From IMG/VR virus record IMGVR_UViG_2882178878_000003, positions 21,909 to 85,908 of that record: a stretch of 64,000 nt of DNA, one strand, 5' to 3'. Each line of letters begins with the position of its first letter. The stretch's first letter is position 1. Under the pieces are notes generated by a model. That model saw nothing but the letters and a program-made list of their open reading frames with translations, was not told the DNA's origin and ran no database searches. Source of the DNA: a virus (Duplodnaviria; Caudoviricetes). The position numbers and the translations under genes were made by a program. Of this stretch, positions 6,017 to 49,300 are shown piece after piece.

Positions 6017-6724
6017 TCAAAAAATCGTATACCGCCCCACGACCTTACCCACCAGCCTGCAGTTATGATCCACTGGCATGATCTTTTCATGCCAGTTCGG
6101 ATTTAACGCCCGTAAGTAATAACGACCACTTTCCACCACCAGTTCTTTAAACGTTGCCTCACAGTCACCGTCGCAGGCCATCACCACCAGATCCCCAGTA
6201 TTTAGCTCATCAATCTGGAAGGTAGGATTAACGTATATCCGATCATCAGGTTTAAACATCGGCTCCATGGACACGCCTTTAACGATCAAGCCAAAGCCGT
6301 TTTTACCGGCCCTAGGGTCATAAGGCAGCCATTCGATGATGTTGGATAAATCAGAGGCCATTACTGGTGTCCAGTCCCCAGCCTGCACCCATGAGATTAC
6401 CGGCATAGATGCGGGTGGCATATCAATAAGCTCGGTGCCAGTTGGTGGCAAAAAAGCTTTGCTGTTCCACTGATCTGGCGATTGTCCGGATTGAAATTGT
6501 TGTTGTGATTTAGGGCGAATTCCACCATAAAGAATATAATCAGTCGTAACACCAAAATGATCTGCTATTGCTTTTAAAGGTGCAGCTTTTGGTAAATAGC
6601 CATCCTTCTCCCATTCCGTTACGGCTGGAGCACTTACATCTGCAATTTTAGCTAACTGGGCTTGAGTTAGCTTTTTCTCTTTTCTTAGCGCACGGATGCG
6701 CTGCCCCACAGTTTGATTTTCCAT
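6017..6724 (-). CDS. cI: CI-like repressor (XRE HTH plus S24 autopeptidase)
   Basis: N-terminal HTH (IRALRKEKKLTQAQLAKIADVSAPAVTEWE); S24 motifs GVSMEP and ATFKEL; divergent from cro. Confidence 0.93.
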   Translation of the reverse strand: MENQTVGQRIRALRKEKKLTQAQLAKIADVSAPAVTEWEKDGYLPKAAPLKAIADHFGVTTDYILYGGIRPKSQQQFQSGQSPDQWNSKAFLPPTGTELIDMPPASMPVISWVQAGDWTPVMASDLSNIIEWLPYDPRAGKNGFGLIVKGVSMEPMFKPDDRIYVNPTFQIDELNTGDLVVMACDGDCEATFKELVVESGRYYLRALNPNWHEKIMPVDHNCRLVGKVVGRYTIF

Positions 6725-10882: not shown

Positions 10883-11000
10883 TCCTAATAAATCATGCAG
10901 GATTGTGTTGGAAAGTGGGAGGCGCTGATTGATGAAACAATCGGCACTGAATTCTTAAGGCTCACTACAGTGGGCTTTTTGTTGCAGTAAAAAGCCTGAA

Positions 11001-11645
11001 TTAATCAGGCTGATTGTAGTTACTTGTTGATGGCTTTAATGTCCATCGCTTCCATGCTTTTGCTTTGCCTGCCTTGACATTAAGCAACCCGGCTGTAGCG
11101 TTGCAGTATTCTCCGCCCGTACCGCGCTTGCCGCCTGTGCGCTTAAATACGGTGTCAGCAGGGGCAAATAAATGTGGGTTTTGGCGTACAAACTCATATA
11201 GATTTTTAAACTTGTACTCGGTGCCATCTGGTGAGATAAGCCACCAGTCTACTGCCTGCACATTAGACGCAAACTTGCCAGCAAGTGGACTAAGTTTAGC
11301 GGCCTCAGTTGCCATAATCTGGCCTGCATTGCTGTGTGGTGCACACTGCGGCTTTTTGGTGCCGATGTCCTTGCGTTTTGCCTTGCTGGCTGCTGCTGGT
11401 GCGCCAAGCTCCCAGCGTTTTTTGGCTACTGTGTCGTAAGCCAGTCCAAGATCACGGGCCAGCTCAGTATTGTTTTTTGACCAGTCTGCCTGTGACCAAT
11501 CCACTTTGCGCGGCTTTGGTTTAACTGTCTTGCCAAGCTTGGCGCGGTAGGTGTAGATCGTATGCAGCTTAACGCCCATCTTTGCTGCTATTACATCGTT
11601 GGGCTGGCTCCAGTCAATCGCCAGCCAGTCAGATTTACTTGCCAT
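11001..11645 (-). CDS. Tandem-HTH DNA-binding protein, third gene of the acr-like operon
   Basis: Two DWS..N..(I/L)A..(M/L)G HTH-like repeats; C-terminal WWLISPDGTEYKFKNLYEFVR module; very basic. Confidence 0.6.
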   Translation of the reverse strand: MASKSDWLAIDWSQPNDVIAAKMGVKLHTIYTYRAKLGKTVKPKPRKVDWSQADWSKNNTELARDLGLAYDTVAKKRWELGAPAAASKAKRKDIGTKKPQCAPHSNAGQIMATEAAKLSPLAGKFASNVQAVDWWLISPDGTEYKFKNLYEFVRQNPHLFAPADTVFKRTGGKRGTGGEYCNATAGLLNVKAGKAKAWKRWTLKPSTSNYNQPD

Positions 11646-11658
11646 AAATACCGTCAAC

Positions 11659-12159
11659 TTAAATGTTTTTTAGTGCATAGCGCGGATGCTGACCACAGGA
11701 CAATAAAAACATGCCCCAGGTGGTCGGGTGTGGTCGTTGCTCCCCCTTTTCCCAGCGCTGCCAGTTTGAGATATTAACGCCTGCTAACTTGGCGCATTTA
11801 GCCTGAGTGCCGACTTGTTTGCGCAAGTCTTTTATTTGCTCGGGTGTGGGTGGCTCAACGGGCACGTTATCCCATATTTGCACAGGCTGGTTGTACTCAG
11901 CTGCGACTGCATTAAACATGCGCTCGGCGGCCATATCTTTGTCACCACCATTGGTCAGGTGCGCTTGATACCATGTAGCGATTAACGCGCCCACATTGTC
12001 GGGGTTGGCAAAAATAGCGCGGTCAAGCTGGTTGTGGTCTGCCAGCTCATGGATTGCTGACCAGTTAAATTGCACGTGGCCGGTGTCCTGATCGTGCCAT
12101 AAGCCTAAATCAGCAAAATCCAGATTGTCCGGCACGCTAATTTGTTTTTGTTGTTGCAT
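11659..12159 (-). CDS. AcrIC6-like domain fused to a C-terminal XRE HTH (Acr-Aca-like fusion)
   Basis: The N-terminal ~90 aa align with the AcrIC6 C-terminal domain as recalled (MQQQ, PD..F.DL.L..D.D.G.V.F.W, DNV..LI..WYQAH...GG). C-terminal PTPEQIKDLRKQVGTQAKCAKLAGVNISNWQRWEKG is an HTH. A GGAG RBS precedes the ATG at 12159. Confidence 0.6.
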   Translation of the reverse strand: MQQQKQISVPDNLDFADLGLWHDQDTGHVQFNWSAIHELADHNQLDRAIFANPDNVGALIATWYQAHLTNGGDKDMAAERMFNAVAAEYNQPVQIWDNVPVEPPTPEQIKDLRKQVGTQAKCAKLAGVNISNWQRWEKGEQRPHPTTWGMFLLSCGQHPRYALKNI

Positions 12160-12203
12160 AGGTTGCTCCAAAAGATAAGCCCCATTGCTGGGGCCTTGTT
12201 GGT

Positions 12204-12470
12204 TTATAGGACTTCGATTGATTCAGGGTTGTCCCAGTCCAGGTTGTCGTCTTCCAGGCGGCCATCTTTGTAATTTTTAAATAACCAGGTTACGCGGTAT
12301 TCATTGCCATCTTTGTCGGTTGCTAGGGCGCTAAACTCATCCCAGTACATTTCACATTCTTCACCGTCTACTTCTTCAGTCCAGCTATCGTTAAACCAGC
12401 CTGCAAATACGCGGTTGGTGCGCTCAGCTTGGTCGGTAAAGGTTAGGTCATTGATAGTAATTGCGTTCAT
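12204..12470 (-). CDS. Small acidic Trp-rich protein; candidate anti-CRISPR/anti-defence protein
   Basis: 88 aa with 23 D/E, 7 K/R and 5 W; first gene after a strong promoter with an operator; GGAG RBS. Confidence 0.6.
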   Translation of the reverse strand: MNAITINDLTFTDQAERTNRVFAGWFNDSWTEEVDGEECEMYWDEFSALATDKDGNEYRVTWLFKNYKDGRLEDDNLDWDNPESIEVL

Positions 12471-12535
12471 TTTGATTCTCCGCCCGTGTAATGCGCTGGG
12501 CTTGCGCCGACTGCGTTATCGCTGTCTATGTAGCT

Positions 12536-12564
12536 ATATTACCGCGAATTGCGGTAAGCGTCAA
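12536..12564 (-). promoter_or_regulatory. Near-consensus sigma70 promoter with internal palindromic operator
   Basis: TTGACG (12559-12564), 17 bp, TAATAT (12536-12541). Perfect inverted repeat TTACCGC-GAATT-GCGGTAA at 12539-12557. Confidence 0.85.
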
Positions 12565-12589
12565 CACCTATATTTAATTATTTACTACC

Positions 12590-12620
12590 GTTCGTCGGAT
12601 TTGATCTGATGGGCTTTTTT
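12590..12620 (+). terminator. G-U-rich hairpin plus T6 (plus-strand only)
   Basis: 11-bp stem containing four G-U pairs, 3-nt loop, then TTTTTT. Confidence 0.45.
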
Positions 12621-12651
12621 GTCGCACTTGCATGAGTGTGTGGATTGGAAG
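12621..12651 (+). CRISPR. Solitary type I-C CRISPR repeat-like unit (not an array)
   Basis: GTCGCACTTGCATGAGTGTGTGGATTGGAAG matches the recalled I-C repeat GTCGCACTCTTCATGGGTGCGTGGATTGAAAT at 26/32 positions with one gap. The 7-bp stem CGCACTT/GAGTGTG is retained. Confidence 0.6.
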
Positions 12652-12655
12652 AACA

Positions 12656-12697
12656 CCCCTGTAAGGTTCGACACCTCCATTCCTATTGCCTGATTAT
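12656..12697 (+). promoter_or_regulatory. Late promoter motif copy 1 (terS)
   Basis: CCCCTGTAAGG at 12656-12666; TCGACA at +2; GATTAT at +26. Confidence 0.75.
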
Positions 12698-12720
12698 TAC
12701 CTTGTACAGAGGTAGTATCT

Positions 12721-13419
12721 ATGGCAGACGACAAAACCACAGACTGGAAAAAGATTGAGCTGGATTATCGCGCTGGCGTTAAAAGCTTGCGTCAGATTGC
12801 CAGTGAAAATGGTATTTCGGATACCGCCATTCGGAAGCGAGCCAAAAAGGATGAATGGACTCGTGATTTATCAGCACGTATTCAAGCTAAAGCAGATGAT
12901 CTGGTTCGCAAGGATCAAGTTCGCGCTGAGGTTCGCACAAGAACCACTGTTTCAGAGCGTGAGATTGTTGAATCAAATGCTCAGGCTATTGCTACTATCC
13001 AGCTTAACCACAGGAAAGACATTCAACGTTCCAGAAACATAGCCATGAATCTTATGGCTGAACTTGAGCAGCAATCTGGCCTTGATAACGCTGATTTGCT
13101 TGAGCAGCTTGGCGACTTGATGCGCAATGAGGATGACAAAGGGCAGGATAAATTAAACGATTTGTACTGCAAGATTATTTCTCTACCTGGTCGCGCTAAA
13201 ACCATGAAGGATCTGGGCGAATCATTACGGGTTCTGATTGGCCTTGAGCGCCAGGCATTTAATATGGATTCTGCCAATATCAATGATTCAGTTGCTGGTG
13301 GTACTGGCAAGCAAATGTCAGATGCTGAAAGGGCTGTTCGCCTATCACGCTTACTTCAATCCAATCCGGATGCATACCAAGCATTATTGGCGTTAAGAAA
13401 TGGTGGCAGTAATGGCTAA
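12721..13419 (+). CDS. Terminase small subunit (probable)
   Basis: N-terminal HTH (DWKKIELDYRAGVKSLRQIASENGISDTAIRKRAKK); directly upstream of terL. Confidence 0.75.
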   Translation: MADDKTTDWKKIELDYRAGVKSLRQIASENGISDTAIRKRAKKDEWTRDLSARIQAKADDLVRKDQVRAEVRTRTTVSEREIVESNAQAIATIQLNHRKDIQRSRNIAMNLMAELEQQSGLDNADLLEQLGDLMRNEDDKGQDKLNDLYCKIISLPGRAKTMKDLGESLRVLIGLERQAFNMDSANINDSVAGGTGKQMSDAERAVRLSRLLQSNPDAYQALLALRNGGSNG

Positions 13420-14962
13420 TGAAATAGAGCTAACGACTGCTTCATTGATGGAACTGCTTCAACATTTTGATCCTAAGGCACGCCAAGAACTCGACCAGCT
13501 ATTACTTGCTGGTGATGCGCCATTATGGGTACCACAAGAAGGCCCACAACAAACGGCTTATGACTCACAGGCCGATATTGTGTTTTATGGTGGTGCTGCT
13601 GGTGGTGGTAAGACTGATTTACTGCTGGGACTGGCTTTAACATCTCAACAGCATTCTATTATTTTCCGGCGTGAAGCAGTGCAGTTGGTTGGTATTGAAG
13701 AACGCATGACGTCGATTCTTGGTACACGTAAAGGCTATAACAGTCAGTCTGGTGTTTGGCGCTTGCCCGGTAACCGGGTAATGGAATTGGGCAGCGTAAA
13801 AGAGCCGGGTGACTGGATTAAATATCAAGGCCGCGCCCATGACGCCAAGCTATTTGATGAGATATGCCACTTTGCCGAATTGCAATTTAGAACATTGATT
13901 GGCTGGTTGCGTACCGATCAACCCGATATACGGCAGCGTGTCGTTTGTGCAGGCAATCCACCCACCACTGCAGAAGGTGAGTGGGTAAAGCGTTTCTGGG
14001 CTGCATGGCTAGATCCACAACATCCAAACCCGGCAAAGCCTGGTGAATTGCGTTGGTATGTCACCAATGAGAAAGGCGAGGACGAAGAAGTCCCCGGGCC
14101 TGACATGGTGAAAGTTGGCGACGACATGATGAAGCCAAAAAGCCGGACATTTATTCCATCTTCAGTCAATGACAACCTATTTTTACTTTCCACTGGCTAT
14201 AAGGCTACCTTGCAAGCCCTGCCTGAGCCACTGCGTTCACAAATGCTACGTGGTGATTTTAATGCTGGTGCAGCAGACCCGGCATGGCAGGTTATTCCCA
14301 CAGAATGGGTGAAAGCTGCCCAGGCACGCTGGAAACCACGTGAAGTAAAAGGCCCTATGACAGCTTTGGGTTTTGATCCGGCGCGTGGCGGTATTGATAA
14401 GTCATCACTGGCCAGACGCCATGACAACTGGTTCGATGAAATGATTTCTGCACCTGGTGCAGTCACGAAAGATGGCCCTACTGCTGCTGCATTTGTTGTG
14501 CCTTACATTCGTGATGGTGCATGTGTTTGTGTCGATAGCATTGGGATTGGTTCAAGTGCACTGGATTTCCTCGTAGGCCTTAATCTCAATGTGCTGGCTG
14601 TGGTTGGTAGTGAAGCTTCGCATGTTCAAACCAAGGCTGGAAACATCCGCATGCGCAATAAACGGGCTGAAATGTACTGGCGTTTGCGTGAGGCATTAGA
14701 TCCTACAGCACCTGAACCAATCGCGCTCCCACCAGATTCCGAGTTACTGGCTGATCTTACTGCTGTCCGTTACAAGGTGGTCACTATGGGCAAAGTGGCT
14801 GCCATTCAAATGCGCGATAAAGATGAGATTCGTGAAATGTTAGGCCGTAGCCCGGATAAAGGTGACGCTGTGGCAATGACTTTTGTGGAAGGCATACCAG
14901 ATTCCAATTCAACACGTGACACTTATGAGGAAGCAGAAGCCACAGACTGGCGCTATGCCTAG
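13412..14962 (+). CDS. Terminase large subunit
   Basis: Walker A YGGAAGGGKT, Walker B KLFDE, AGNPP, and nuclease motifs GFDPARGG.D and SPDKGDA. Confidence 0.92.
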   Translation: MANEIELTTASLMELLQHFDPKARQELDQLLLAGDAPLWVPQEGPQQTAYDSQADIVFYGGAAGGGKTDLLLGLALTSQQHSIIFRREAVQLVGIEERMTSILGTRKGYNSQSGVWRLPGNRVMELGSVKEPGDWIKYQGRAHDAKLFDEICHFAELQFRTLIGWLRTDQPDIRQRVVCAGNPPTTAEGEWVKRFWAAWLDPQHPNPAKPGELRWYVTNEKGEDEEVPGPDMVKVGDDMMKPKSRTFIPSSVNDNLFLLSTGYKATLQALPEPLRSQMLRGDFNAGAADPAWQVIPTEWVKAAQARWKPREVKGPMTALGFDPARGGIDKSSLARRHDNWFDEMISAPGAVTKDGPTAAAFVVPYIRDGACVCVDSIGIGSSALDFLVGLNLNVLAVVGSEASHVQTKAGNIRMRNKRAEMYWRLREALDPTAPEPIALPPDSELLADLTAVRYKVVTMGKVAAIQMRDKDEIREMLGRSPDKGDAVAMTFVEGIPDSNSTRDTYEEAEATDWRYA

Positions 14963-14973
14963 GAGAAAATAAC

Positions 14974-17226
14974 ATGCAGACCGTCGAAGAAAGCACTGCA
15001 CCCGTAATGCCGCAGTCAGATGATGTGCTAAGCCAGTATGAATATGCTGAAATCATTGGTGAGATTGAAGAACAGCCAGCCTGGCGCCGTGTGGCTGATA
15101 AGGAAATGGATTATGCCGATGGTAACCAGCTCAATGGTGAACTGCTGAGCCGCATGGCTGAATTGGGCATTCCGCCTGCGGTTGAGGATCTGATTGGTCC
15201 GGCACTGTTATCAATTCAGGGTTATGAATCCAAAACCCGGACAGACTGGCGTGTGACCCCTAACAATGGAAGCGACGGTCAGGACGTCGCAGACGCTTTA
15301 AACTTTAAGCTCAATCAGGCTGAGCGTGAATCTAAAGCAGATATGGCCTGTGGCAAAGCATTTAGGCCACAGATTGGTTGTGGCGTTGGCTTTGTAGAAG
15401 TATCAAAGGATTCTGACCCGTTTAAGTTTCCATACCGCTGTATGGCTGTGCATCGCAACGAGATCCACTGGGATATGAAAGCGATTGAGCCAGATTTATC
15501 TGATGCGCGCTGGTTGCGTCGTCGTCGCTGGTTGCATCCAAATCGGGTGAAGCTGGTATTCCCACAGCATGCTGAGCTGATTGATAACTGTGGTAAGCAT
15601 GGCGGTTCATGGTGGAGTGATGAAACCATCAATGAAGGTGGTGTCAGTACTGGCTTGCAGAACGCATGGAATGAAGCACGTGCATGGACACAGCAGGAAG
15701 ATTACTGGTACAACCCGGCTACCAAGGAAGTCTGCTTATCTGAACTCTGGTACCGTCGGTGGGTTCAGGTGCACGTCTTAAAAACATCAGATGGCCGTGT
15801 GGTTGAATATGATGAGGATAATGTGGCGCATAATCTGGCCATTGCCAGTGGTAAGGCCGAAGTACAGCTGGCGACTGTGACCCGTGTGCGTCGTGCTTAC
15901 TGGCTTGGCGGTCATTGCCTGTTTGATGGTCCAAGCCCATACACGCACCGGCATTTTCCCTATGTGCCGTTTTGGGGATTCCGTGAGGATAATACCGGCG
16001 TGCCATATGGCTATGTGCGCGGCATGAAATATGCGCAAGATAGTTTGAACAGCAGTATCAGTAAGTTGCGCTGGGGCATGAGTGTGACCCGGATTGAGCG
16101 CACCAAGGGCGCAGTTGATATGACTGACGCCCAGTTGCGTCGTCAGGTTGCAAGGCCTGATGCAGATATTGTACTGAACGCCAGCAAGATGGCTGAGCCT
16201 GGTGCACGCTTTGACGTCAAGCGCGACTACAACCTCACCGACCAGCATTACCAGATGCTCAATGACAACCGCAGTACCATTCAGCGCGTGAGCGCAGTCA
16301 CCAGCGGCTTTATGGGTAAGGAAGGCACTGCACGCTCAGGATTGCAGGAACAAACGCAGGTTGAACAGTCGAATCAGTCACTGGCCAGCGTCATGGACAA
16401 TTTCCGCTTTGGCCGTAGCCTGGTGGGTGAATTACTGCTGGCCATGATCATTGCAGACATGGGCAATAAAACACAAAGTATCGTAATTACTGGTGATGCG
16501 ATCCGGCCAGAACGCACCGTAGTGATCAATAAGCCGGAAGTTGATGAGCAGGGTTATCCATATCTATCCAATGACCTGCAGCGTACACGCCTGAAAGTTG
16601 CCCTTGAAGATGTACCAAGCACCAACAGCTATCGTGGCCAGCAGCTTAATGCCATGTCCGAAGCGGTTAAATCCATGCCGCCACAATACCAGGCTGCTGT
16701 TCTGCCATTCCTTGTATCACTTATGGACGTTCCATTTAAACAGGAAGTGGTTGAAGCAATTCGTGCCGTGGATCAACAACAGACACCAGAAGCCTTCAAT
16801 GAAGCGGTACAAAAAGGCATTGAGGAAGCGATGGTTAAGGCTGCCCATGATCTTAAACTGCGTGAGCTTGAGCTTAAAGAGCGTGTGGCGGAAAGCGAAA
16901 TTAAAGGTTTGGATGCCAAGGCAGTACAGATTGGTGTGCAGGCTGCGTTCTCTGCCATGCAAGGCGGTGCTCAGGTTGCGCAGATGCCGATGATTGCACC
17001 GATTGCTGATGAGATTATGAAAGGTGCAGGCTATAAAAAGCCTAACCCAATGGGTGATGATCCGAGTTTCCCAATGCCGCAGAATGTACCTGTGCCTACT
17101 GGCCAGCCCGCATTAACTGATGTGCATAAAAATACCAGCCCTACCTTTCCACCAGTGCCAAGTGATGGTGTATCATCTATGAGTGGGATTGAAACAGCCA
17201 GTGCCGCTGATAATTTACCAGCCTAA
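14974..17226 (+). CDS. Portal protein (podovirus type)
   Basis: 750 aa directly after terL; HRHFPYVPFWGFR..GVPYGYVRGMKYAQD..N motif. Confidence 0.85.
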   Translation: MQTVEESTAPVMPQSDDVLSQYEYAEIIGEIEEQPAWRRVADKEMDYADGNQLNGELLSRMAELGIPPAVEDLIGPALLSIQGYESKTRTDWRVTPNNGSDGQDVADALNFKLNQAERESKADMACGKAFRPQIGCGVGFVEVSKDSDPFKFPYRCMAVHRNEIHWDMKAIEPDLSDARWLRRRRWLHPNRVKLVFPQHAELIDNCGKHGGSWWSDETINEGGVSTGLQNAWNEARAWTQQEDYWYNPATKEVCLSELWYRRWVQVHVLKTSDGRVVEYDEDNVAHNLAIASGKAEVQLATVTRVRRAYWLGGHCLFDGPSPYTHRHFPYVPFWGFREDNTGVPYGYVRGMKYAQDSLNSSISKLRWGMSVTRIERTKGAVDMTDAQLRRQVARPDADIVLNASKMAEPGARFDVKRDYNLTDQHYQMLNDNRSTIQRVSAVTSGFMGKEGTARSGLQEQTQVEQSNQSLASVMDNFRFGRSLVGELLLAMIIADMGNKTQSIVITGDAIRPERTVVINKPEVDEQGYPYLSNDLQRTRLKVALEDVPSTNSYRGQQLNAMSEAVKSMPPQYQAAVLPFLVSLMDVPFKQEVVEAIRAVDQQQTPEAFNEAVQKGIEEAMVKAAHDLKLRELELKERVAESEIKGLDAKAVQIGVQAAFSAMQGGAQVAQMPMIAPIADEIMKGAGYKKPNPMGDDPSFPMPQNVPVPTGQPALTDVHKNTSPTFPPVPSDGVSSMSGIETASAADNLPA

Positions 17227-17234
17227 TGCAGTTA

Positions 17235-17275
17235 CCCCTGTAAGGCATGATTAATAAATACCACTTCTCAATAAT
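17235..17275 (+). promoter_or_regulatory. Late promoter motif copy 2
   Basis: CCCCTGTAAGG at 17235-17245; AATAAT at +25. Confidence 0.7.
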
Positions 17276-17316
17276 TAAGGTAAGCACTAACGCTTGCCTT
17301 TTTTATTGAGTGAAAC

Positions 17317-17733
17317 ATGAGCCAGTCTGAACAACAGATCGAGCAGGAAATCCAAGCCAAAGGCTTAAATGCACCACGTTTAACGCCTGCTGATATTGAC
17401 CGCGTGATTATTGGTGAACACTACTTCACTGCGGCACAAGGCACCGCAAAAGCCATGGAAGATGCTGCTTTTGTTAATGGGTCACTAAATGGCGCAGCAA
17501 TTTTACCAATACCTGCCACTTTGAATCTGCTCACATTCTGCGTACTAACTCTTGAAAACGGCTTTACCGTTACTGGTGAATCGGCATGTGCCAGTCCTGA
17601 AAACTTCAATGAAGAAATTGGCAAAAAGATTGCCTATGACAATGCCCGCGAAAAAATCTGGGTATTGGAAGGCTATTTGCTGAAACAGCGACTTTATGAT
17701 CAGGAACTTTGGCCTGCTTCATATCAGTATTGA
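17317..17733 (+). CDS. Phage Gp49/Gp66-family protein (candidate nucleotide-signal sponge)
   Basis: APRLTPADIDRVI...LTFCVLTLENGFTVTGESACASPENFNEEIGKKIAYDNAREKIWVLEGYLLK is the family signature. Confidence 0.8.
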   Translation: MSQSEQQIEQEIQAKGLNAPRLTPADIDRVIIGEHYFTAAQGTAKAMEDAAFVNGSLNGAAILPIPATLNLLTFCVLTLENGFTVTGESACASPENFNEEIGKKIAYDNAREKIWVLEGYLLKQRLYDQELWPASYQY

Positions 17734-17743
17734 GTAATACATA

Positions 17744-17926
17744 ATGGCCTGCCGTCCTGAGTGTTGCGCATGTCTGGAAGGGCTGACCCAAGACGGGTTG
17801 GCCCTGACCAATGCTGACTATGACAAGGCTATGGCCATTATTGAACAGCGCACGGATCTCACTGAAACCCAGCGGGAACAAATGCGCATTTATGTCTGGC
17901 ATTTATTTGATGCCCATAATATTTAA
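17744..17926 (+). CDS. Small hypothetical protein
   Basis: 60-aa ORF with C-x3-C-x2-C. Confidence 0.45.
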   Translation: MACRPECCACLEGLTQDGLALTNADYDKAMAIIEQRTDLTETQREQMRIYVWHLFDAHNI

Positions 17927-17942
17927 ATGAGAGTACGGTTAT

Positions 17943-18179
17943 ATGTTTAATCCACCTCATGTTGGTGAAGTGCTGCGGGAATATATTGATCAAACGCCGA
18001 TTGAGATTGTTGCCAAAGAATCTGGCTTATCTATAGCGCGTCTTTCTGATGTACTGGCTGGAAATACTGCTATTACGCCAGATGATGCTAATGGGCTGGC
18101 AAAAGCACTTAATACATCGTCACAGTTCTGGTTAGACCTGCAAGCACAATATGAAAGCAAGCAAAGTGCAGATCTGTAG
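17943..18179 (+). CDS. higA: HigA-family antitoxin-like HTH protein
   Basis: NPPHVGEVLREY...AITPDDANGLAKALNTSSQFWLDLQAQYE. Confidence 0.8.
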   Translation: MFNPPHVGEVLREYIDQTPIEIVAKESGLSIARLSDVLAGNTAITPDDANGLAKALNTSSQFWLDLQAQYESKQSADL

Positions 18180-18453
18180 ATCAGCCAAGCGATTGCAGGC
18201 CATTCGTACTTTACCTTGCGTACGTTGTGGCAATCCGGATAGTCAGGCAGCCCATAGTAATTTTGCGGAGCATGGTAAGGGCAAAGGTATAAAAGCCAGC
18301 GATGAGTTCACCATTCCCTTATGTATTACCTGTCACCAATGGTTTGACCAGTATCAGGGCATGACTGTGGATCAGAGCAGGACATGGTTTGTGGAAATGC
18401 TGGATAAGACCAATCGTATGTTGAGTGTTGGCGATGGCCACGAAGTATTCTAA
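18151..18453 (+). CDS. DUF968-like zinc/HNH-type protein
   Basis: LPCVRCG..SQAAHSN..GKGKGIKASDEFTIPLC..CH..FD. Confidence 0.75.
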   Translation: MKASKVQICRSAKRLQAIRTLPCVRCGNPDSQAAHSNFAEHGKGKGIKASDEFTIPLCITCHQWFDQYQGMTVDQSRTWFVEMLDKTNRMLSVGDGHEVF

Positions 18454-18931
18454 AAAAACATTTATTGTCAGGTCAGAGCAGCACTTAACCAGTGCTGTTG
18501 GCCATTTGCTGCAAAACTATCAGGCTGCTATTAATGATGATAAGCCGTTGCATGTGCATGTGACCACCAAGCAGGACAGTCGCAGTGTGGCACAGAACCG
18601 CTTGTACTGGATGTGGCTTGGCCAGATTGAAAAGGAAACCGGCAATGATAAAGATGATTTGCACTTTGAGTTTAAAAAGAAATTTCTGATTGCCATTTAT
18701 GAGCGAGATGACCAGCAGTATGCAGAGATGTGCCACGCCATCAAGGCACTCAGGCAAAGTCATTCAGAACAATATGCGGCGGTGGCAGCTGGTGTAATCC
18801 GGGAAACATCAACAACCCGGATGACGCCCAAGCAGTTCACAGAATATTTAAATTCCATCCATGACTATACGCTGGTGAGGTTAGGTATTCTGCTGGCCAT
18901 ACCGGATGAGTTACGGTTTGCTTTTGAATAA
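18425..18931 (+). CDS. ninB: NinB (Orf)-family recombination protein
   Basis: RSVAQNRLYWMWLGQI and STTRMTPKQFTEYLNSI motifs. Confidence 0.8.
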   Translation: MLAMATKYSKKTFIVRSEQHLTSAVGHLLQNYQAAINDDKPLHVHVTTKQDSRSVAQNRLYWMWLGQIEKETGNDKDDLHFEFKKKFLIAIYERDDQQYAEMCHAIKALRQSHSEQYAAVAAGVIRETSTTRMTPKQFTEYLNSIHDYTLVRLGILLAIPDELRFAFE

Positions 18932-19049
18932 AATATTTAAAATTCATATGATTGTATATACAGCAAGGCTTTGAAAGCACTGCTGGTGGCTGTAGAATTA
19001 TTGATGCAACATATGATTTGATAAATAATTAAACAGGAATCTAATAATC

Positions 19050-21908: not shown

Positions 21909-23195
21909 ATGACAACCAAAACCAATTCCTCTTACGGGGATAAAACCAATATGACGCAACAGGCAGTTGGCCTGTTTGCAACTCACATGCAACGCAACAG
22001 CACCATGAACCGTCTGGTCGGCAAGATGCCCAAAGGCGAAGCTGGCGCTGAAGCAACCCTGCGCAAGCAAACCACCCAGCACATGCCAATTGTGCGCTGT
22101 CAGGATCTGGGCAAGAAAATGGGCGATGAGGTGACGTTTCACCTGCTAAACCCTGTGAACGCCAAACCCATCATGGGCAGCCACAATGCTGAAGGCCGTG
22201 GCGTTGGCATGAACCTGTCCGAAGACCGTCTGCGTGTAGATCAGGCGCGTTTCCCGGTTGACCTCGGCAATGCCATGACTGACGTGCGTTCGCCCGTGGA
22301 TTTCCGCCGTCTGGGTCGCCCGGTTGCGCAAAATCTGATGGACCGCTATTGCGACCAGTCCATGCTGGTGCATATGTGCGGTGCACGTGGCTTCCAGAAC
22401 AATATTGAATGGGTCGTGCCAACCGAAAATGATGCTGATTTCTCAGAAATCATGGTCAACCCGGTTAAGGCGCCAACCAAGAACCGTCACTATCTGGCCG
22501 ATGGCACAGGTGTCCAGTTGTTTAAGGAAAATGCGGGTGAAGTGGATATTACCTCTACTGACCTGTTCAAGATGGACACCGTGGATTCCATGCGCTCCGT
22601 GCTTGACCAGATTGCATTGCCACCACCAGTGATCAAGCTGGAAGGCGATGCGGCAGCTGACGATGATCCGCTGCGGGTCTGGATGGTATCACCAGCCCAG
22701 TACAACAAGTTTGCTGCCGATCCGTCTTTCCGTACCTTGCAGGCCTCTGCACTGGCACGTGCCAATCAGGCGAAAGGACATCCATTATTCTTAGGTAGCG
22801 TAGGCCTGTGGAATGGCTTCCTGATTATGAAGATGCCACGCCCAATCCGCTTTTATGCTGGCAATACCATGAAGTACTGCGCTTCATACAGCAGCGAAGC
22901 TGAATCATCCGTGCTGGTTCCAGCAAGCTTTGGCACTCAGTTTGCCATTGACCGCTCAGTGATTCTGGGTGGACAGGCACTGGCCGAAGCCTTCGCGTCA
23001 GCACGTCAGTCCGGCATTCCATTCTTCTGGTCTGAAAAAGAGCTGGATCATGGTGATAAAGCCGAGCTGCTGATCGGTGCTATTCGCGGTGTTTCCAAAA
23101 TCCGCTTTGAAGTGGATGGCGGCAATGGCAAGGAATTCACCGATTATGGCGTGACAGTGGTTGATACCGTGGTTGATAACCTGGCTGGAACTTAA
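21909..23195 (+). CDS. Major capsid protein, N4-gp56 (DUF4043-like) family
   Basis: PIVRCQDLGKKMGDEVTFHL..P......GVGMNL, LARANQAKGHPLFLGSVGLWNG and DYGVTVVDT motifs. Confidence 0.85.
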   Translation: MTTKTNSSYGDKTNMTQQAVGLFATHMQRNSTMNRLVGKMPKGEAGAEATLRKQTTQHMPIVRCQDLGKKMGDEVTFHLLNPVNAKPIMGSHNAEGRGVGMNLSEDRLRVDQARFPVDLGNAMTDVRSPVDFRRLGRPVAQNLMDRYCDQSMLVHMCGARGFQNNIEWVVPTENDADFSEIMVNPVKAPTKNRHYLADGTGVQLFKENAGEVDITSTDLFKMDTVDSMRSVLDQIALPPPVIKLEGDAAADDDPLRVWMVSPAQYNKFAADPSFRTLQASALARANQAKGHPLFLGSVGLWNGFLIMKMPRPIRFYAGNTMKYCASYSSEAESSVLVPASFGTQFAIDRSVILGGQALAEAFASARQSGIPFFWSEKELDHGDKAELLIGAIRGVSKIRFEVDGGNGKEFTDYGVTVVDTVVDNLAGT

Positions 23196-37182: not shown

Positions 37183-40100
37183 ACATGACATTGTTTATTC
37201 CAAACATGAAAGCCATGGATGAGTCGATTGATCAAGTTAACGACAAAATGAAATATTTTGAGGGGAAGGCAAATAGCTTTTCGGCCGCCCTTGCCAAAGA
37301 ACTAAGTAATATTTCAAATATCCAGTTTGATGAGATTGGCGATGCACCTTCGCTCACTCCAAATAATGGCCTTGATTCCCTGAGTCCAGTGGTTCTCCCG
37401 GAGCTTTCTGCGCCCGACATTGCACCCCCTGTGCTTGACCGACAGGATGTGGTTGCATTATCAACACCCGCGCCGCTTGATATTGCGCCACTAAATCTAA
37501 CTATTGAGCAGCCCGTATTGCCCAATCTGGATAATACATTTAATCCGGTAAGTTACACGCCGATTGATGACATTAATCGGATTCAGGCACCTGAAATAAT
37601 TGGCGACATCAAAGCTCCAGTAATGGAGTTGCCAGACTTAAAATCCCCACAAGCACCCGCTCTTGTCAATAAGCCAACTATTAATCTAGATATCGCTGCA
37701 CCCGTATTGCCCAATCTGGATAATGCATTTAATCCTGTTGGCTACACAGCCATTAGTGATATCGCTGGCCTGGAAGCGCCAAGAATTGACACGGAAATTA
37801 AGGGAAGTCATCTAGAGTTGCCGGAATTCAAGACGACACAAGCACCTGCACCACTACAAAGACCAAATGTTAATCTGGATATTGATATCCCAGTGTTACC
37901 TGATCTTCCTAGTCAATTTGCAGAAGTAGCTGAGGATTTTAGCTATGATGCACCATCCATTGAATTTGACACTATTCCTGCCCCACTTAATGACGATGTG
38001 AATTTTACCAGTAAGTTGCCCACACTGGATATTTCAAATTTGATGGGTGCACTGGATTTTACCCTGCCTGACATGCCGGACGTGCCAGTTGGTTTTGATA
38101 TTGCGATGCCAGCTGTGCCAGATATTAATACAGGATCTGCGCCTTTAGCTCCGGCCATTGATACAACCATTAATCTGCCCAGCGCACCTGAACTCAACCT
38201 ACCTGAAATGGAGGCACTTGAGGCAATTGAGTTACCCTCTTTTGAGTTTGAGGGAGTGCCTGAGTTTGATGAGGAAGCACCTGTCTTTGAGATTGATGCA
38301 TCTGTATTTAGTGATATTGACCAGGCGCTGACTGATGCGGTTGAGGTACTATCCAAAGACTACTTTGAGCACAATAAAGATTCAGTCATTAGTCCGTTGA
38401 TGACTGAGATTAAAAATTGGCTTGAAGGTGGTCACCCGGGAACAGGATTGCCTGCATCTGTGGAATCCGCATTATTCAACCGGGCTGTTGACCGCGAAAG
38501 CCAGCAAACCAGACGTGCAGTAAGTGAAGCTGTTAATGAGTGGGCAGCACGTGGTTTCTCTATGCCGCAGGGAATGTTGCAAAAGCAGATTAGCGCTATC
38601 CGTGATGACGCCAGATTAAAATCGGCTGACTTAAACCGTGAAATTATGGTGCAGTCGTTTGACAAGCAGCTTGAACATATTCGCTTCTTAACCACCCAAG
38701 GTATGGCGCTGGAAAAAATGCGTATTGATTTGTGGACTGCCTACACAGCCAACATGATGCAAGTGGTGCAGCTTCAAGTAGAAAGCAAGATAAATATGTT
38801 AAATGCACAAATCAGTTTATTCAATGCTCAAGCCAGTGCATTTGAAACACTGGTGACGATATATAAAACCAAAATCGAAGGAGCAATTGCCAAAATTACA
38901 GCGTATAAAGCGCAGGTTGATGCACAAATGGCAATTGGGCAAATCAACCAGCAAAAAATAGAGATATTCAAAGGCAAAATCGAAGTGGTATTGGCCAATG
39001 TGGACGTTTACAAAGCTTTGATCCAGGGTGAAAGCGCTCGGTCTGATGCGATTAGGAATCAGATTGATGTTTATAAAACTGAAGTATCTGCATATGCCGA
39101 GGAGATGTCCGCCCAAAAGGCCAGAATTGATATTTTTAATGCTCAGGTCAATGCAGAAACTGCCAGAGTGGGCATGTTTGAATCAATATCAAGAAACTAT
39201 GCCACAACTATCCAGGGAATTGGTGTGCAAGCTGATGTCAAGAATAAGCAGCAGGGGCTAATTATGGAGGAGGCGCGGCTAAAATTACAGGAATTTAGCG
39301 CACTCATGGATCTTGAAAAGTCGGAAATATCAACCCGACTGGCGATTGCCCAGAACAATACCAATAATTTTGTCAGGCAGGTCGAGTGGGTTAAGGCGGT
39401 TAGCGATCAAAAGTCAAGGAAGGCCGATCTTGAAATGAAGTCACTGGATGCCAAGCAGCGTACAGTCATTGCCAATGCTGATTTACGCGGCAAGTACGCG
39501 GATATCAATTCTAGAATTATTCTTGCCAATGCAGACATGCAGGGCAAGTACATGGATATTAAGTCGCGTTCTGCAATGGCCAAGCTTGATAGTGAAATGA
39601 AGTACGTCGATATCCAGTCACGTATTGATCTGAGTAACGCTGAAATTGAGGCGAAATATGCAGGCATGGATGTACAGGTCAAGACAGCCAAGCTGGATGC
39701 AGACAGTAAAGCACTGGATGCACAAATCAGGGTGGCTACGGCTAATGCTGATTTACAATCTCGTCACTTGGATAATCTGACTAAAGTTGGGATTGCCAAT
39801 GCCGATGCAAACATCAAAGTCAGTATGGCCAACGCAGAAATGCAGGGTAAATATGCAGATATCAATTCCAGAATGGTGATTTCAGGGGCAGAGTTGCAGG
39901 GCAGGTTTGCCGAGATTCAATCAAGAGTAGCAATGGCCAAGCTTGATAGTGAAATGAAGTACGTCGATATCCAGTCACGTATTGATCTGAGTAACGCCGA
40001 GATTGCAGCCAAGTATGCCGATATGGATATCAAGGCTAAAACTGCCAAGCTGGATGCTGATGGCAAGGTATTGGAGGCCAATGTACGCATTGCAACTGCC

Positions 40101-43339: not shown

Positions 43340-46300
43340 ATGTCTGATTCTAAAATTGACTGGAGCAAGGGCACTTTAACTCAACCAGCAAACCCCGAAA
43401 ATAATAATGAAGCCATTGATTGGAATAACGGCACTTTAACCCATCCTGATGAGATCCCAGTAAAAAAGAATAAGGGTATAGTTGGTCATCTTCAAGATAC
43501 TGCCGCTTCCCTTGCTTCGGGTCTGGCATCAGTGCCAGATATGGCTGTTGGCGTTGCCGATATGTACACCGAAGGGCGTGCAGGCAAGGCAATAGATGAT
43601 ACTGGCGTTTATAAAATGGGTGAAGCCAGTAAATACTGGCAGGACAAAAAAACCGATATTGCCAAAGAACAGGATATAACCCGCCAAAGCACCGAGGGGA
43701 TCTGGAACAAAACCAAATATGTTTTGGAAAACCCCTCACAAATTACCAATGCAGTAGTGGAGTCAGCACCTTCAATTCTGGCAGGTGGGGTTGCCGGGCG
43801 CATATCCAAAATTGCCAATCCGTTGGTGGCTGGTGCAGTTGGCGAAGGGATAGTGGGCGCCGGTGCACAGGCCGAAAATATCCGGCAACAAACCAATGAC
43901 GGCTTGCTGGATAATGGCCAGCAAGCCGCTGCTGCGGGAACTGGCGCTTTAACGTCCCTGTTTAGCATGGCTGGCGGTAAGCTGGCGCAAAAAATGGGGA
44001 TTGGTGATGTTGATACTTTGCTAACCCGAGGTCATGCCACACCAGCACAAGTTGCAGGTGAAATCGCATCCATGCCTGCAAAGAGTTTACCGCGTAAAGT
44101 GATTGAAGGTGCAATCTCAGAAGGCTTTTTGGAAGAATTGCCGCAGTCAGTATCTGAGCAGATCATTCAAAATCTGGCACTAGATAAGCCATGGCATGAA
44201 GGGGTTGAAGATGCTGCCGTCATGGGAACACTGGCAGGCATGGCAATGGGTGGCGGTATCGCACCTTTCCATGGCAACCCACCCACCAGCCCATCTGGAC
44301 AGGACAATAGTCTGCCACCTGAAAACCCTAATAATCCATTAGCACCATTACCAGCACCAGCAGGAAATGATCTTGGCAGCACCCCCATGGAAGGTGAATA
44401 TATTCCCAGGCCCAATAGCCAAGATCCAGCACAGGCGGGGCGCACACCAGAAACGGTAGACGGAACAGCAACAGAATGGTTTGACCGTGAGCGCCTGCAA
44501 AATGCACCAGCCAATACCTCACCTGATTTACTGACTGGTATTGAAAACCAGCCTGAGGCATTTGATGCACCAGCAAATCCAGCCTTGCCAGCCCCATCAA
44601 TTGAGCCAGCCAAACCCTCAGAACAATTAGGCCTTGACCCCAATGCAGGTTCACTATCCGCTGCTGCTGCTTTGGCCGTAGATAGTGGCGCTTCACCACA
44701 TATTACTAACCCAGATACAGCAATCAATCAGGTGGATGAGTCGGCACAGGCAGCGGGTGATCTCACAAAACCACGCACCACTGCTGATGACATCAAGAAT
44801 GGCTTTAACGCTTTGGCTGGTGGCGCTGTTGATGCCATGGTGGAACGCACCAGTGATTTATTGCAAGCGGGGCAAGATGTAACCTTTTACAAGCCTGATT
44901 CCATTGCCAGCGCCCTGCAAAATCCCAACTATCATGTACAGCAAAATGAGGACGGTTCAGCAACAGTGCTAGGCGCACTTGATCCACGCACGAATGAATG
45001 GATAGGTCAGGCACCAGCCCAGCCAGATACATCACAACAAATTACCCCAGCGGATAATGGTCAGGACATTAATACTTCTCGACAGCGCAGCAATACGAAC
45101 CGAACTAACGAGCAGGTAATGGATGATGCATTGGCTGCGGTGCAACGAACCAAAGATAAATTAAATGATCCTTCTCGCTATCCTGAACTGCATACCGAGC
45201 AAGCAATCAATGAGCGCAAGGACTATGAACTGCCCGGTGGCTATGTACGCTCGCTTGCAGATCAGCTATCTAGTGGTGAGGCAGTTGAGGCGAATAATAG
45301 CCGCCGCGCCAATATATTTTTAAATAATCCAAATTTTAATGCTGCCAAGAATGAAGATGGCGTAGTAGCTGTTCTAGGGATTAAGCATCCTGATACCGGT
45401 GAATGGGTAGGTCGGGCACCCGAGCAGACCACCACAAGCAATCCGGCTGCTGCAGCGCAATCACCAGCAGCACAGGAGCAATCCCCGCAAGCACCAACAC
45501 TCACCAGCGAATACGCCCCCGGTTCTGTACCGCATGCGCGTGATATTGCCACACAAGCATTAGAGCAATACAGCGGCGATACCACAGGTTTAACTGACAA
45601 AGGCCAGTCATTAACCAGCCATAGCCCTGCTGCTGATCTTATTTACTACAAAAATTCCCCATCCTTTAGCAATGTAGAAGTGCAGGATGCTGGTGATAAG
45701 GCAGTCGTGCAACTAACCAATGCCAAAACCGGTGCAGTTGAAACCCGTGACTATCCGCAAAGTCTGGTTGGCTTTAATCAGTTTTTAGATGGCGGTCAGG
45801 CTGAAACTACCCCCGCACAGGCAAGCAGTGCAACTACTGCACAGCCAACAGAAAGCAATCAGGTTGAGCAGCTAGAACAGCAGCTTGCTGATACTAAAAA
45901 CGTGGCGCAAAAGGCACAGCTACGCAAACAGATTAATGAATTAAAGGTACAGCAGGGTGAGCAGGCTGCACCGGTACTTGGTGCTGATGGCAATAATAAA
46001 TGGTTTGGAAGCCAGCAAAAGGCACAAGGCTTTATTGATAAAAATAAACTTGATGATACTCACCAGGTTGTACAGACTGAAAAGAACCGTTTTGAGATTC
46101 AGCCTAAACAGCCTGCTACGCAGAACGTACAAGATGCGCCGCAGAGTGTAGAGCCAGCAGTACAACAGCAAAATGCAGAAGTACCAAACCCGTATAAAGA
46201 GAATCAATTACGGGCCAATGTGCGAAACATTAACACCCAGGTAAGCAGCAATGCGAAAGATGCTACTACAAGACCACAAGCCTTTAACCAGGAAGTGCAG

Positions 46301-49300
46301 AAGCAATACCCAGGTCTATATGCACGCGCAGAAGCATTAGCTAAAACAGCAAAGACCACGCCAGCAGGCCGCCGTGGTAATACTCAATTTTCAAGTCTAA
46401 GTTTTGATGGTGATAAAACATATCAATCTGGCGACCCGTACCCAAAAAAGCCAACAAAAGACGAAGTTTTACAGCAAGCAATCTGGCATCTGTCACAAGA
46501 TGATAAAAACAATGAATCTCATGCTTGGGATAATTTAGATGAACAGCAAAAAACCGAAGTTTTAAAGCGTGCTGGTTGGAAAACTAACGCAGGCGGCCTA
46601 AATGTTATCGGTAAGAAATTACTGAAACAAAATTCTACTGCTGTTAATACTGAAACAATGAAAATCATTGAACGCAATATGCCTGGGAACCAGGGAGTAC
46701 AGCAGCAGTCAGTCAAGCCAGCATCTACCGATGCCAAGTCGATGACAGAAGCCGAATTTGATCAGGCTATGAACAGCGAGGCTGGTGCAAGGTCATTAGT
46801 CGATAAGGGTATCAGTGCCGGGTTATTCACCCAGCAGGATATAGATACCGTTACCAATGGAAACTTTGCAGCAGGCTGGACACAGCTAGACCAAAACGAC
46901 AGTCTTAAGTCCCTGTTTAAATCCAAAGGGCTGATTCAAGGGCAGGCACAGCAACCCGCCCAACAAGGTACAGCTAAACCCAAGACCGTCACCACCTCAT
47001 CTGGCAAACAGATTGAGGTGCGCTTCAAGGTGGTGGAGGCATCAGAGCTTGGCACGTCACACACTGGCAATGGTGCAATCAATCCGGCATACCCACAGGA
47101 ATTACAGCCGCGTGACCGTTCACGTTCAGCATCCATCAACCAGATTAATGACATTGCCGCCAACCTAAACCCGCACATGCTTGGCGATAGCCCCACGGTG
47201 ACTGATGGCGCCCCAATTGTATCGAGTGACAATATCGTAGAAAGCGGCAACGGACGCACCCTGGCAATTACCAAAGCCTACCAGACTGGACGCGGCGAAG
47301 CATACAGACAGCATTTGCGTGATGCGGGTTATGACGTTAACGGTATGCAGCAGCCGGTGCTGGTGCGCGAGCGCGTCACTCCCATGACCATGCAGGAGCG
47401 TATTGAGTACACCGGCGAAGCCAATCAGCGCAACACATTGGGGTTAAGCGTATCTGAGCAAGCCGAACAGGATGCCAAGAAGTTAAGCAGCCGTGTGACC
47501 AGCCTGTATCGCGGCGGGGATATTAATTCACCCACCAATACGCCATTCATTAAGGCGCTGATGAATGAAGTGGTACCGCAGTCCGAGCATGGCAACATGC
47601 AACAAAAGGACGGACAGCTATCACAAGATGGTAGGCGTCGGATTCAAGCGGCGCTACTGCAAAAAGCCTACGGCGATTCTGCCTTAGTGACCGAAGTATT
47701 TGAAAGCACTGATACCGAGATTGCTTCCATTGGTAAAGCCTTGCTGGATGTGGCCGGCGAATGGGCATTGATGCGTGATGGCGTGCAAAATGGCGAGCTG
47801 CTACAGGACGTTGATGTTACCGCTAACCTGATGGAGGCAGTGCGTATTGTGCAAAAAGCGCGAGCCGAGCGCCGTTCAATTGCCGAAGTAGCAAGACAGG
47901 ATGATATATTTAGTGGCACTATTGACCCGGTAACAGAGGGCTGGTTGTCGGTATTTTATCGGGGCGATCATTTCAACAGAGCCAGAAGCCGCGAGAAGGT
48001 ATCAGGTGCTCTGTCTTATTATGTAGGTCAGGCCAGCCTATCAACCAAGGGTGAGAATCTGCTGGGTGAAACCGCCCCCGGTGGACGTGAAATTTTAGGA
48101 GCGACCAATGAGCGAACCAGAAAGCAAGAACAAGACACGCAACAAGACATCTTCAGCAGCCCGCGAGCTAATGAATCGAACCCTGCTGAATCTGGCAGAG
48201 CAGGACAAGGACGTACCACTGAAAAACAGAATGAAGAAGCAGCTAAGCCAGAAGTAGGGCGGGAAAAATCTGATGTTCAGGTAATGTCAGAAAATAAAGG
48301 GGATATTGCAGAGGATATTGCCAGAGAAATCCAGCGCGTCAATCGGCTAAAGCAGTCGATAAGAAAGCAAGGCAAGCAAACATCATTACAAGCAGACAGA
48401 AGTAAAGTAGCTAAAAAGTGGGGGTTAAATCCTGTAGGTTGGGGTAAGTTCGATATTGTTTTTGGTGCAGCAGTATTAGCTGACGTGGCTGCTGGCTTTG
48501 ATTCAAATGCGAGTTTTGAGCAGTTAAAGGCTGCTGCAATCAAAAAAATTGATGAGCTTGTTGAAGCTAAAGCAAAAGAGGGAGTCGCCGTTAAAGCGCC
48601 CGATACACATGCAGGCGTTAGTCCTGCCTCATTTAAGGCACTGCAAGACTTGCGACTGGCACCGCACCCTAAAACCCTCGAGGGACTGCTGGAACAGTAT
48701 GAACAAACTCGTGATGCTGCCAATCAGATAGCCGCCGAAGCCACTGATCCGGCAGTAAGCAAGGCGTATAGACAGCAAGCCGATATGTATGAGGCAGAAG
48801 CTCGAATCGTAAGGAGTGAGCTGGGCACAAAAAAACAGGAACAAACTGAAAACAGTAAGCCAGACCTGGTAGAAGAAATCCAGTCGATGAGCCTGGATGA
48901 TATTTCTGCCTTGTTTGATGAAGTGGCGCAGGAAAATAACGCGGTTGAAACCAGTAAGCCAAAAGCTAAACGTAGCACTAAAGGCAAAACTGCTACAGGC
49001 AAACCACGGCCAAAGCCAAAGGAAGCCCAAGCTGAAAAGATTGATCCTGAAAACAAAGAGGACACCAAGCGTACCGCAAGCGCGATTGCAAAAGACATTG
49101 GTGCAAACCTAAGTGACGCTGGTTTAAATGCGCTGGATGGCTTAGCCAAGCTGTTTGGTGGCAATGGCAAGATGAATAGCGGCCTATCATTTGATGAGGA
49201 CACCTACGCCAAAGCCAAGCCGCATTTTGTGCAATCAGCCAAAAGCACCATTGAGGCAGGCAAGAACCTAAAAGACTTAATCCGCGCCCTGATTAATGCG

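Follow-up and report, generated by a model that had tools for sequence, protein, structure and literature searches.

Seven of eight inhibitors of type I-C CRISPR-Cas systems (AcrIC; Acr, anti-CRISPR) have a high acidic content and several block DNA binding by Cascade; AcrIF2, with 96 aa of which 24% are acidic, has an isoelectric point (pI) of 4.0 (PMC7913775). The anti-CRISPR-associated (Aca) regulator Aca10 is a dimeric repressor of the acrIC7-acrIC6-aca10 operon which binds a palindrome of 19-21 bp overlapping the promoter, with ATACGCTCATTGAGCGTAT as minimal site, and fusions of Acr and Aca are known as well (PMC9410881). Here we analyse ORF88, an acidic, Trp-rich open reading frame (ORF) of 88 aa in a prophage. 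It lies in a 64,000-nt stretch of DNA (the window; positions 21,909 to 85,908 of the Caudoviricetes record IMGVR_UViG_2882178878_000003), to which all coordinates refer unless a contig or another locus (L) is named. An earlier note on this DNA had called ORF88 a candidate new Acr or DNA mimic. The Acr part of this proposal gains weight from an Aca10-like helix-turn-helix (HTH) domain next door, from cassette swapping and from a self-targeted type I-C host. The DNA-mimic mechanism found no support, no fold match having emerged. Judged from its context, the chances are about even that ORF88 is a new type I-C Acr, most likely one that binds Cascade, and it is probably an anti-defence protein of some kind. 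All three lines of evidence by which Acrs are usually discovered converge on this candidate: a neighbouring aca gene as anchor, a lysogen that targets itself, and the small size and acidity of a protein from a mobile genetic element.

ORF88 and its exchangeable cassette

ORF88 heads a three-gene cassette which is inverted between the replication and packaging genes of the prophage and runs from promoter over ORF88, hairpin, ORF166 and ORF218 to a terminator:

12536..12564, minus strand: sigma-70-like promoter, TTGACG (12564-12559)-N17-TAATAT (12541-12536), from a consensus scan
12539..12557, palindromic: putative operator TTACCGC-N5-GCGGTAA, 19 bp, perfect, in the promoter spacer and overlapping the -10 element
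12204..12470, minus strand: ORF88, slot-1 cargo, candidate anti-CRISPR, predicted all-beta (translation, HMMER family, alignment, AlphaFold2)
12177..12196, minus strand: GC-rich hairpin that separates ORF88 from the regulator gene, has a weak T tract and may terminate transcription in part
11659..12159, minus strand: ORF166, regulator with C-terminal Aca10-like HTH
11001..11657, minus strand: ORF218, slot-2 cargo with two HTH-like repeats; library scans gave only weak HTH matches
10993..11011, minus strand: intrinsic terminator closing the cassette, identical in sequence in L014

The locus thus combines a mobile element, a small protein, an aca-like HTH gene next door and a palindrome in the promoter. 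ORF88 starts with ATG, 7 nt downstream of a GGAG Shine-Dalgarno sequence, and the promoter-like site lies ~58 nt further 5'. The protein contains 12 Asp and 11 Glu versus 3 Lys and 4 Arg, together with five Trp, which gives an acidic fraction of 26% and a computed pI of 4.05. Translation and counting hence return the composition given in the earlier note (23 acidic versus 7 basic residues and five Trp in 88 aa). Its statement that ORF88 is the first gene behind an operator-bearing promoter likewise stands, with promoter and palindrome located 5' of the gene.

The size of ~90 aa, the acidic content of about one quarter and the pI of ~4 are shared with the acidic type I inhibitors AcrIF2, AcrIC4 and AcrIC5, as are the location on a mobile element and the position as first gene of an aca-controlled operon. 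In contrast to these proteins ORF88 is predicted to be almost all beta and lacks a sequence match to any solved chain as well as a fold match above background. Structure prediction, which the earlier note had proposed, was done with AlphaFold2. The models reach a predicted local distance difference test (pLDDT) score of 81 with two sequences and of 83 with 29 sequences (all five models 79-83) and consist mainly of an antiparallel beta-sheet. Fold searches with two models (Foldseek against PDB and BFVD; VIA-wide, twice) gave no match above background; the best values were E 0.37 and Z 4.5-5.3, the latter tied with unrelated beta proteins. Such a tie also led us to reject a row naming the "anti-Cas9 nuclease" 7jta, which has Z 4.0 under the better model. 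Comparison of ORF88 with Pfam, PHROGs and NCBIfam yielded nothing above noise (DUF6006 with E 0.088, two PHROGs with ~0.2). Its Atlas feature matches are nameless, all scoring <0.9.

Relatives of ORF88 are rare. A word-indexed search through 5.8 billion proteins detected a single one (58% identity). The family came into view only when 1.84 billion representatives were searched exhaustively with HMMER, which gave 30 relatives at E<=1e-3. Alignment of 29 members defines a domain of ~78 residues with the motif ..ERTNRVF.GW..DA.EGE.Y.DEWSA.A.D..GN.Y.V.WQF...KG.E.EDD.L.WDD., in which the invariant or near-invariant positions Y42, E45, W62, F64 and W79 are aromatic or acidic. The alignment contains no conserved basic or catalytic-looking residue. 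All 29 aligned members are acidic (domain pI <=4.28, D+E 14-23, K+R 2-9, Trp 2-6). As acidity and Trp content are kept in every member, charge and Trp are seemingly selected traits. N-terminal extensions bring some of them to a length of 146-236 aa. Proteins of Aeromonas caviae, A. hydrophila and A. veronii are among the members from NCBI, and gp31 of Paenibacillus phage BN12 is a distant one.

Names of relatives looked up in a 15-billion-protein collection read "hypothetical protein" or are missing, and none is that of an Acr. The statement of the earlier note that ORF88 is not a named Acr therefore holds as far as tested; direct comparison with the named AcrIC families reached solved chains and the names of relatives only. 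A scan of the 29 members for known families revealed no shared one, and the family profile hit just two chance rows among all PDB chain sequences (E 0.036 and 0.093). Among 400 further genomes sampled from the order, none yielded a family member. Those family or regulator alignments that had a conserved stretch suited to searching gave no relatives in IMG/VR and one weak HTH match in GTDB genomes. Taken together, the sequence data describe a rare, unnamed and uniformly acidic family of ~30 clusters. ORF88 itself is a real gene and not a chance frame, given that its relatives keep the acidic, Trp-rich character.

The regulator gene downstream, with an alternative TTG start at 12171, encodes an acidic N-terminal domain (about residues 1-95) and a C-terminal XRE-type HTH (residues 103-155). 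Among all PDB chain sequences, 7XI5 chain A, which is Aca10 of Pseudomonas citronellolis, matches ORF166 best by a wide margin (E 4.5e-8; E 1.7e-8 with the profile). Residues 103-155 align to residues 5-58 of the 65 in 7XI5 (54/65 covered). Weaker matches of the HTH are the MqsA HTH in PDB (1e-4) and the HTH_31 and MqsA families; outside the HTH no PDB sequence match was obtained. No other Aca10-like or Aca2-family gene was found in the genome carrying the prophage.

The ORF88 cassette and the acrIC7-acrIC6-aca10 operon have in common a homologous HTH, a 19-bp palindrome inside a strong promoter 5' of small cargo genes and a link, in the cassette a presumed one, to type I-C inhibition. The outer half-site bases are similar too (ATACGC... 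in Aca10 IR2, (T/A)TACCGC... in the window). The palindrome has the right size and position for an Aca10-type operator, is conserved and is the putative ORF166 site; a second copy is not present in the window at <=2 mismatches. However, Aca10 is a single domain of 65 aa, whereas ORF166 comprises 166 aa with an additional conserved N-terminal domain of ~95 aa, such that it shares the HTH homology of the Aca10 family but not its small single-domain build. Moreover, the residue aligned to Aca10 R44 is Q with a neighbouring invariant R, and a further cargo gene, ORF218, comes after the regulator. An Aca-type HTH and a second acidic domain in one polypeptide are reminiscent of the Acr-Aca fusions AcrIIA1, AcrIIA13-15 and AcrIF24. 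Unlike in these, the extra domain of ORF166 is N-terminal and, as far as tested, unrelated, and a separate small cargo gene lies 5'.

The N-domain of ORF166 shows the motifs PD..DFADL.L, F.W and DNV..L...WYQAH..GG. It recurs at L011 608-1042 and L010 1415-1801 in a metagenomic operon headed by an ORF88-family gene. There, a 144-aa protein consists of a ribbon-helix-helix (RHH) fused to a domain 39% identical to the ORF166 N-domain (BLASTP 2e-18). Hence the N-domain accompanies ORF88-family genes at two loci that are very divergent, and is joined to a different DNA-binding domain at each. This suggests that the domain and the family are functionally linked.

Close homologues of ORF166 (87, 79, 72 and 56% identical) are encoded on short metagenome contigs, and comparison with these reveals that the cargo is exchanged. 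Between the window and L014 the 150 nt 5' of the cargo start are 90.7% identical and the first 20 nt of the cargo gene agree at 18 positions, both proteins starting with MNAITI; the remainder of the gene is unalignable. The regulator gene follows with 80.6% nucleotide and 87% amino acid identity, then one or more unalignable genes, and finally ~30 nt plus terminator that are identical. Slot 1 is occupied by ORF88 in the window, by an acidic protein of 102-104 aa (pI 4.1-4.2) in L014 and L015 and by a basic, Cys-rich protein of 81 aa in L016 and L017. Hence three unrelated cargos stand under a kept promoter, leader and regulator. In slot 2, L014 and L015 have genes unrelated to ORF218, while the final ~30 nt and the terminator are unchanged. 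These two loci also preserve the operator arms, with a varied centre (TACCGCG-N3-CGCGGTA), whereas the arms differ in L016, where the regulator is just 56% identical. Constant promoter, operator and regulator with a swappable small cargo is the architecture by which Acrs are found through association.

Regarding the leader, its predicted RNA fold is not significant (z -1.1), and a scan for the leader sequence gave three GC-rich chance matches in metagenome contigs and none in viral contigs. A hairpin similar to that at 12177-12196 comes after the unrelated cargo gene of L016. Just 5' of the cassette promoter the window contains the 13-nt motif CCGACGAACGGTA (12586-12598, minus strand), where it overlaps a terminator-like hairpin of the plus strand. 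Exact copies occur at L007 311-323, L008 117-129, L014 51-63, L016 540-552 and L017 67-79, loci that are otherwise divergent. In the GC-rich L007 the motif abuts a TTGACG -35 element and a palindrome with 10-bp arms, 5' of another ORF88-family gene. The motif may mark a recombination joint, serve as a second protein site or belong to a terminator.

The self-targeting type I-C host

The genome carrying the prophage (3.06 Mb in 88 contigs, 100% complete, 0.02% contamination) has the prophage on contig 77 and, on contig 12, an array in which a 32-nt repeat, present 61 times, separates 60 spacers that are 31-41 nt long. The repeat is of type I-C, its reverse complement ending ...GTGGATTGAAAC. The array (~6866-10804 of contig 12) lies beside cas2 to cas3 (10999-18950) in the order cas3-cas5-cas8c-cas7-cas4-cas1-cas2, and the strand fits the repeat orientation. 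All seven cas genes are full-length with strong Pfam matches: cas8c/Csd1 (614 aa, 1e-181), cas7 (6e-110), cas1 (3e-103), cas3 (761 aa with HD, DEAD and Cas3 C-terminal domain) as well as cas5d, cas4 and cas2. By these matches the type I-C locus is complete. For cas5d (L022 5292-6044) the longest ORF begins with GTG and encodes 250 aa, 26 residues beyond all homologues, and the true start is likely the ATG at residue 27 (MARKRVILKVWGD...). Cas8c of the contig-12 type is uncommon: when 401 genomes from the order were sampled it was found in 16, and the other 11 members of the host's family were not among these.

Of the 60 spacers, ten have targets in the prophage; elsewhere in the genome these ten find no match of note. 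Five matches are perfect over the full length and five have 1-2 mismatches. All ten protospacers are on one strand, each preceded by 5'-TTC in the orientation of the CRISPR RNA (crRNA):

13293..13326: spacer 11, 1 mismatch, TTC, in terS
17811..17842: spacer 29, 1 mismatch, TTC
17947..17978: spacer 13, 1 mismatch, TTC
18410..18441: spacer 28, 2 mismatches, TTC
38158..38189: spacer 14, 2 mismatches, TTC
38999..39029: spacer 33, perfect, TTC
39923..39955: spacer 15, perfect, TTC
45476..45508: spacer 16, perfect, TTC, in the 4979-aa ORF
47207..47239: spacer 55, perfect, TTC, in the 4979-aa ORF
49139..49173: spacer 60, perfect, TTC, in the 4979-aa ORF

TTC is the consensus protospacer adjacent motif of type I-C (PMC7913775). 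That ten of ten protospacers carry this 3-nt motif cannot be chance. Spacer 60 adjoins cas2 at the presumed leader end and is the newest one. The 4979-aa ORF (43340-58279) is targeted by three perfect, TTC-flanked spacers including this newest one. Spacers 11 and 13-16, all matching the prophage, make up a run in the array, which together with the protospacers on one strand looks like primed acquisition against this phage lineage.

With array, cas genes and prophage in one cell, the host should destroy its own chromosome; its survival requires that the system is inhibited or silent. An intact cognate type I-C system with prophage-matching spacers makes the host, as represented by a draft assembly, a self-targeting lysogen. 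An RNA anti-CRISPR was considered and rejected: no solitary I-C repeat exists outside the array in the genome at <=7 mismatches.

Prophage setting and neighbourhoods of ORF88 relatives

The prophage is of lambdoid type and extends from the integrase to probable lysis genes near 59 kb. Outside the cassette, its landmarks and the adjacent host gene are:

238-1464: integrase
6017-6724: cI-like S24 repressor
up to 10882, plus strand: replication module (DUF1376 protein, DnaC/IstB-like ATPase, DUF1064)
12721: terS (phrog_1206, 1.7e-70)
13400 and 14974: ORFs placed as terL and portal by their position after terS
near 58.4-59.5 kb: probable lysis genes, from position and sequence
61369: host proS

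An ORF of 138 aa followed by an HTH gene is found at 17317-18179. The HTH gene contains two of the targets with mismatched spacers (17811, 17947), and the pair presumably resembles a HigBA-type pair rather than an acr-aca unit.

The neighbourhoods of the ORF88 relatives, which the earlier note had also proposed to inspect, lie mostly on short contigs. The members are phage-borne; often their transcription unit is a separate or inverted one, and the next gene encodes a small DNA-binding protein that is unrelated from locus to locus. These varied DNA-binding partners are meaningful because such a pattern is what Acr families show. In L006, for instance, a gene for a 54-aa LuxR/GerE HTH overlaps the 3' end of the relative. 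In L041 the relative P0008 stands alone and inverted amid three genes for DNA methyltransferases, with its own promoter (TTGATA-N17-TATACT) and a terminator after the downstream ORF. Directly after P0008, at L041 8295-8462, we noticed an uncalled 55-aa RHH-like ORF (..GRKKQQFYITDEENILLRQYL..) followed by this terminator; the sequence suggests that both form a two-gene, acr-aca-like inverted unit.

The P22-like phage carrying P0011 has a two-gene inverted unit between its DUF1064 replication module and terS, hence at the same location as the ORF88 cassette, and here too DNA methyltransferase genes cluster beside the family member. In L010-L012 the relative is located after a P2 gpD-like tail gene (recognised by eye from the translation), with a 72-aa acidic protein, the RHH-fused 144-aa protein and a KorA-like HTH downstream. 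Finally, the relative in L040 heads a long early operon of small genes.

Function of ORF88 and the alternatives

If ORF88 is a type I-C Acr, the strong promoter would fire upon infection or induction and ORF88 would be made first. The acidic beta-sheet protein would bind the I-C Cascade (Cas8c/Cas5/Cas7) and block the binding of target DNA, in the way of most acidic AcrIC proteins known; a block of Cas3 recruitment is a less likely alternative. ORF166 would dimerise via its Aca10-like HTH on the 19-bp palindrome and reduce expression of the operon to a low maintenance level. The ORF88 still made would, in the lysogen, keep the ten prophage-matching crRNAs from killing the cell.

Several points weigh against this assignment. 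In the libraries searched, neither the sequence nor the fold of ORF88 resembles that of a solved Acr or a named protein, so it is the context that carries the assignment. Aca-type regulators also control non-CRISPR anti-defence genes. Which prophage product inhibits I-C is the main uncertainty: the inhibitor could instead be the acidic N-domain of ORF166, as an Acr-Aca fusion, or ORF218, or it could be encoded elsewhere, for example in a P2-like prophage on the same contig. The location of some family members among DNA methyltransferase genes would suit an anti-restriction role, and the recurrence of the ORF166 N-domain hints at a specific partnership beyond a simple acr-aca model. Moreover, the cas genes may be silent, and if the 88-contig draft is a population assembly, array and prophage might stem from different cells.

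It is conceivable, but rather unlikely, that ORF88 counters a non-CRISPR defence, as an Ocr/ArdA-like decoy for type I restriction-modification or bacteriophage exclusion (BREX), and that I-C is inhibited by the N-domain of ORF166 as an Acr-Aca fusion, by ORF218 or by a gene outside the cassette. Extreme acidity is an established trait of many anti-restriction decoys (discussed in PMC7913775). ORF88 has the charge of a DNA mimic, with 23 D/E versus 7 K/R and a pI of ~4.05, kept across the family. It resembles Ocr and ArdA in this strong negative charge and in its early, promoter-proximal expression position in a phage. The methyltransferase clusters beside the family members in L041 and in the P0011 phage point the same way, as do the variable cargo in slot 2 and the extra conserved N-domain of ORF166, elsewhere fused to RHH, given that Acr-Aca fusions exist. 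Yet the regulator showed homology solely to an Aca that accompanies AcrIC genes, and the host demonstrably needs I-C inhibition. ORF88 is also smaller than Ocr and ArdA and predicted all-beta, and no sequence similarity to them was detected. Foldseek and VIA searches, which are a weak test here, placed neither Ocr nor ArdA nor any other known mimic above background. Ocr and ArdA proteins are largely helical.

We deem it improbable that ORF88 is a moron unrelated to defence, acting in host take-over, superinfection exclusion or as a partner of ORF166 within a shared autoregulated accessory cassette, the lysogen surviving since I-C is silent or the assembly mixes strains. The draft state of the genome would allow for this, and the function of ORF88 is deduced from context. 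Likewise, the cassette cargos differ greatly in character, basic proteins included. One relative follows directly on the P2 gpD-like tail gene, a position that in P2 also holds defence cargo. However, the regulator homologous to Aca10, the layout of the operator and the place of ORF88 as first gene are in keeping with an acr operon, none of the seven cas genes is damaged, and the prophage contains a perfect match to the newest spacer. Furthermore, an acidic composition kept over ~30 divergent clusters argues for selection on surface charge.

That ORF88 and ORF166 are a toxin-first type II toxin-antitoxin pair of HigBA/MqsRA layout, as the order of small protein and HTH protein, the operator in the promoter, the weak MqsA similarity of the HTH and the N-terminus-like domain near a distant ORF88 relative might suggest, is highly improbable and was rejected, because regulators that share this N-domain and 79-87% of their residues have wholly unrelated proteins encoded 5' of them and one antitoxin could not neutralise three unrelated partners, while ORF88 is extremely acidic with only Y, E, W and F at near-invariant positions, has no RelE, MqsR or other toxin match in Pfam, NCBIfam, PHROG and Foldseek scans, and has family members that also occur without an adjacent partner of the same kind.

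Returning to ORF88 as a type I-C Acr, we tentatively put forward a wider version which we would not yet call likely: ORF88 would be the founder of a new, widespread family whose acidic, all-beta and Trp-rich members inhibit I-C Cascade, and would be housed in a two-slot, hot-swappable cassette under an Aca10 HTH-fusion repressor with an ORF88-linked domain. Members are found in the genome carrying the prophage, in Aeromonas genomes and in a Paenibacillus phage. The role of the N-domain of ORF166 may lie in sensing or binding the inhibitor, or else in acting as another inhibitor itself.

An acr-aca operon with a small acidic inhibitor would be of a known kind. New are the unnamed family lacking a known fold match, an Aca10 HTH fused with a further domain, a cassette whose two slots are exchangeable, and the type I-C lysogen targeted by ten of its own spacers. 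If the wider version is true, the N-domain of ORF166 would give a feedback layer not described for acr operons. ORF218, the 102-104-aa acidic cargo and the 81-aa basic cargo are further anti-defence candidates. Type I-C is a compact Cas3 system under development for large-deletion genome editing, and to our knowledge few inhibitors of it are known. The ten-spacer self-targeting lysogen is a ready genetic test, for which ORF88 is a concrete, testable candidate.

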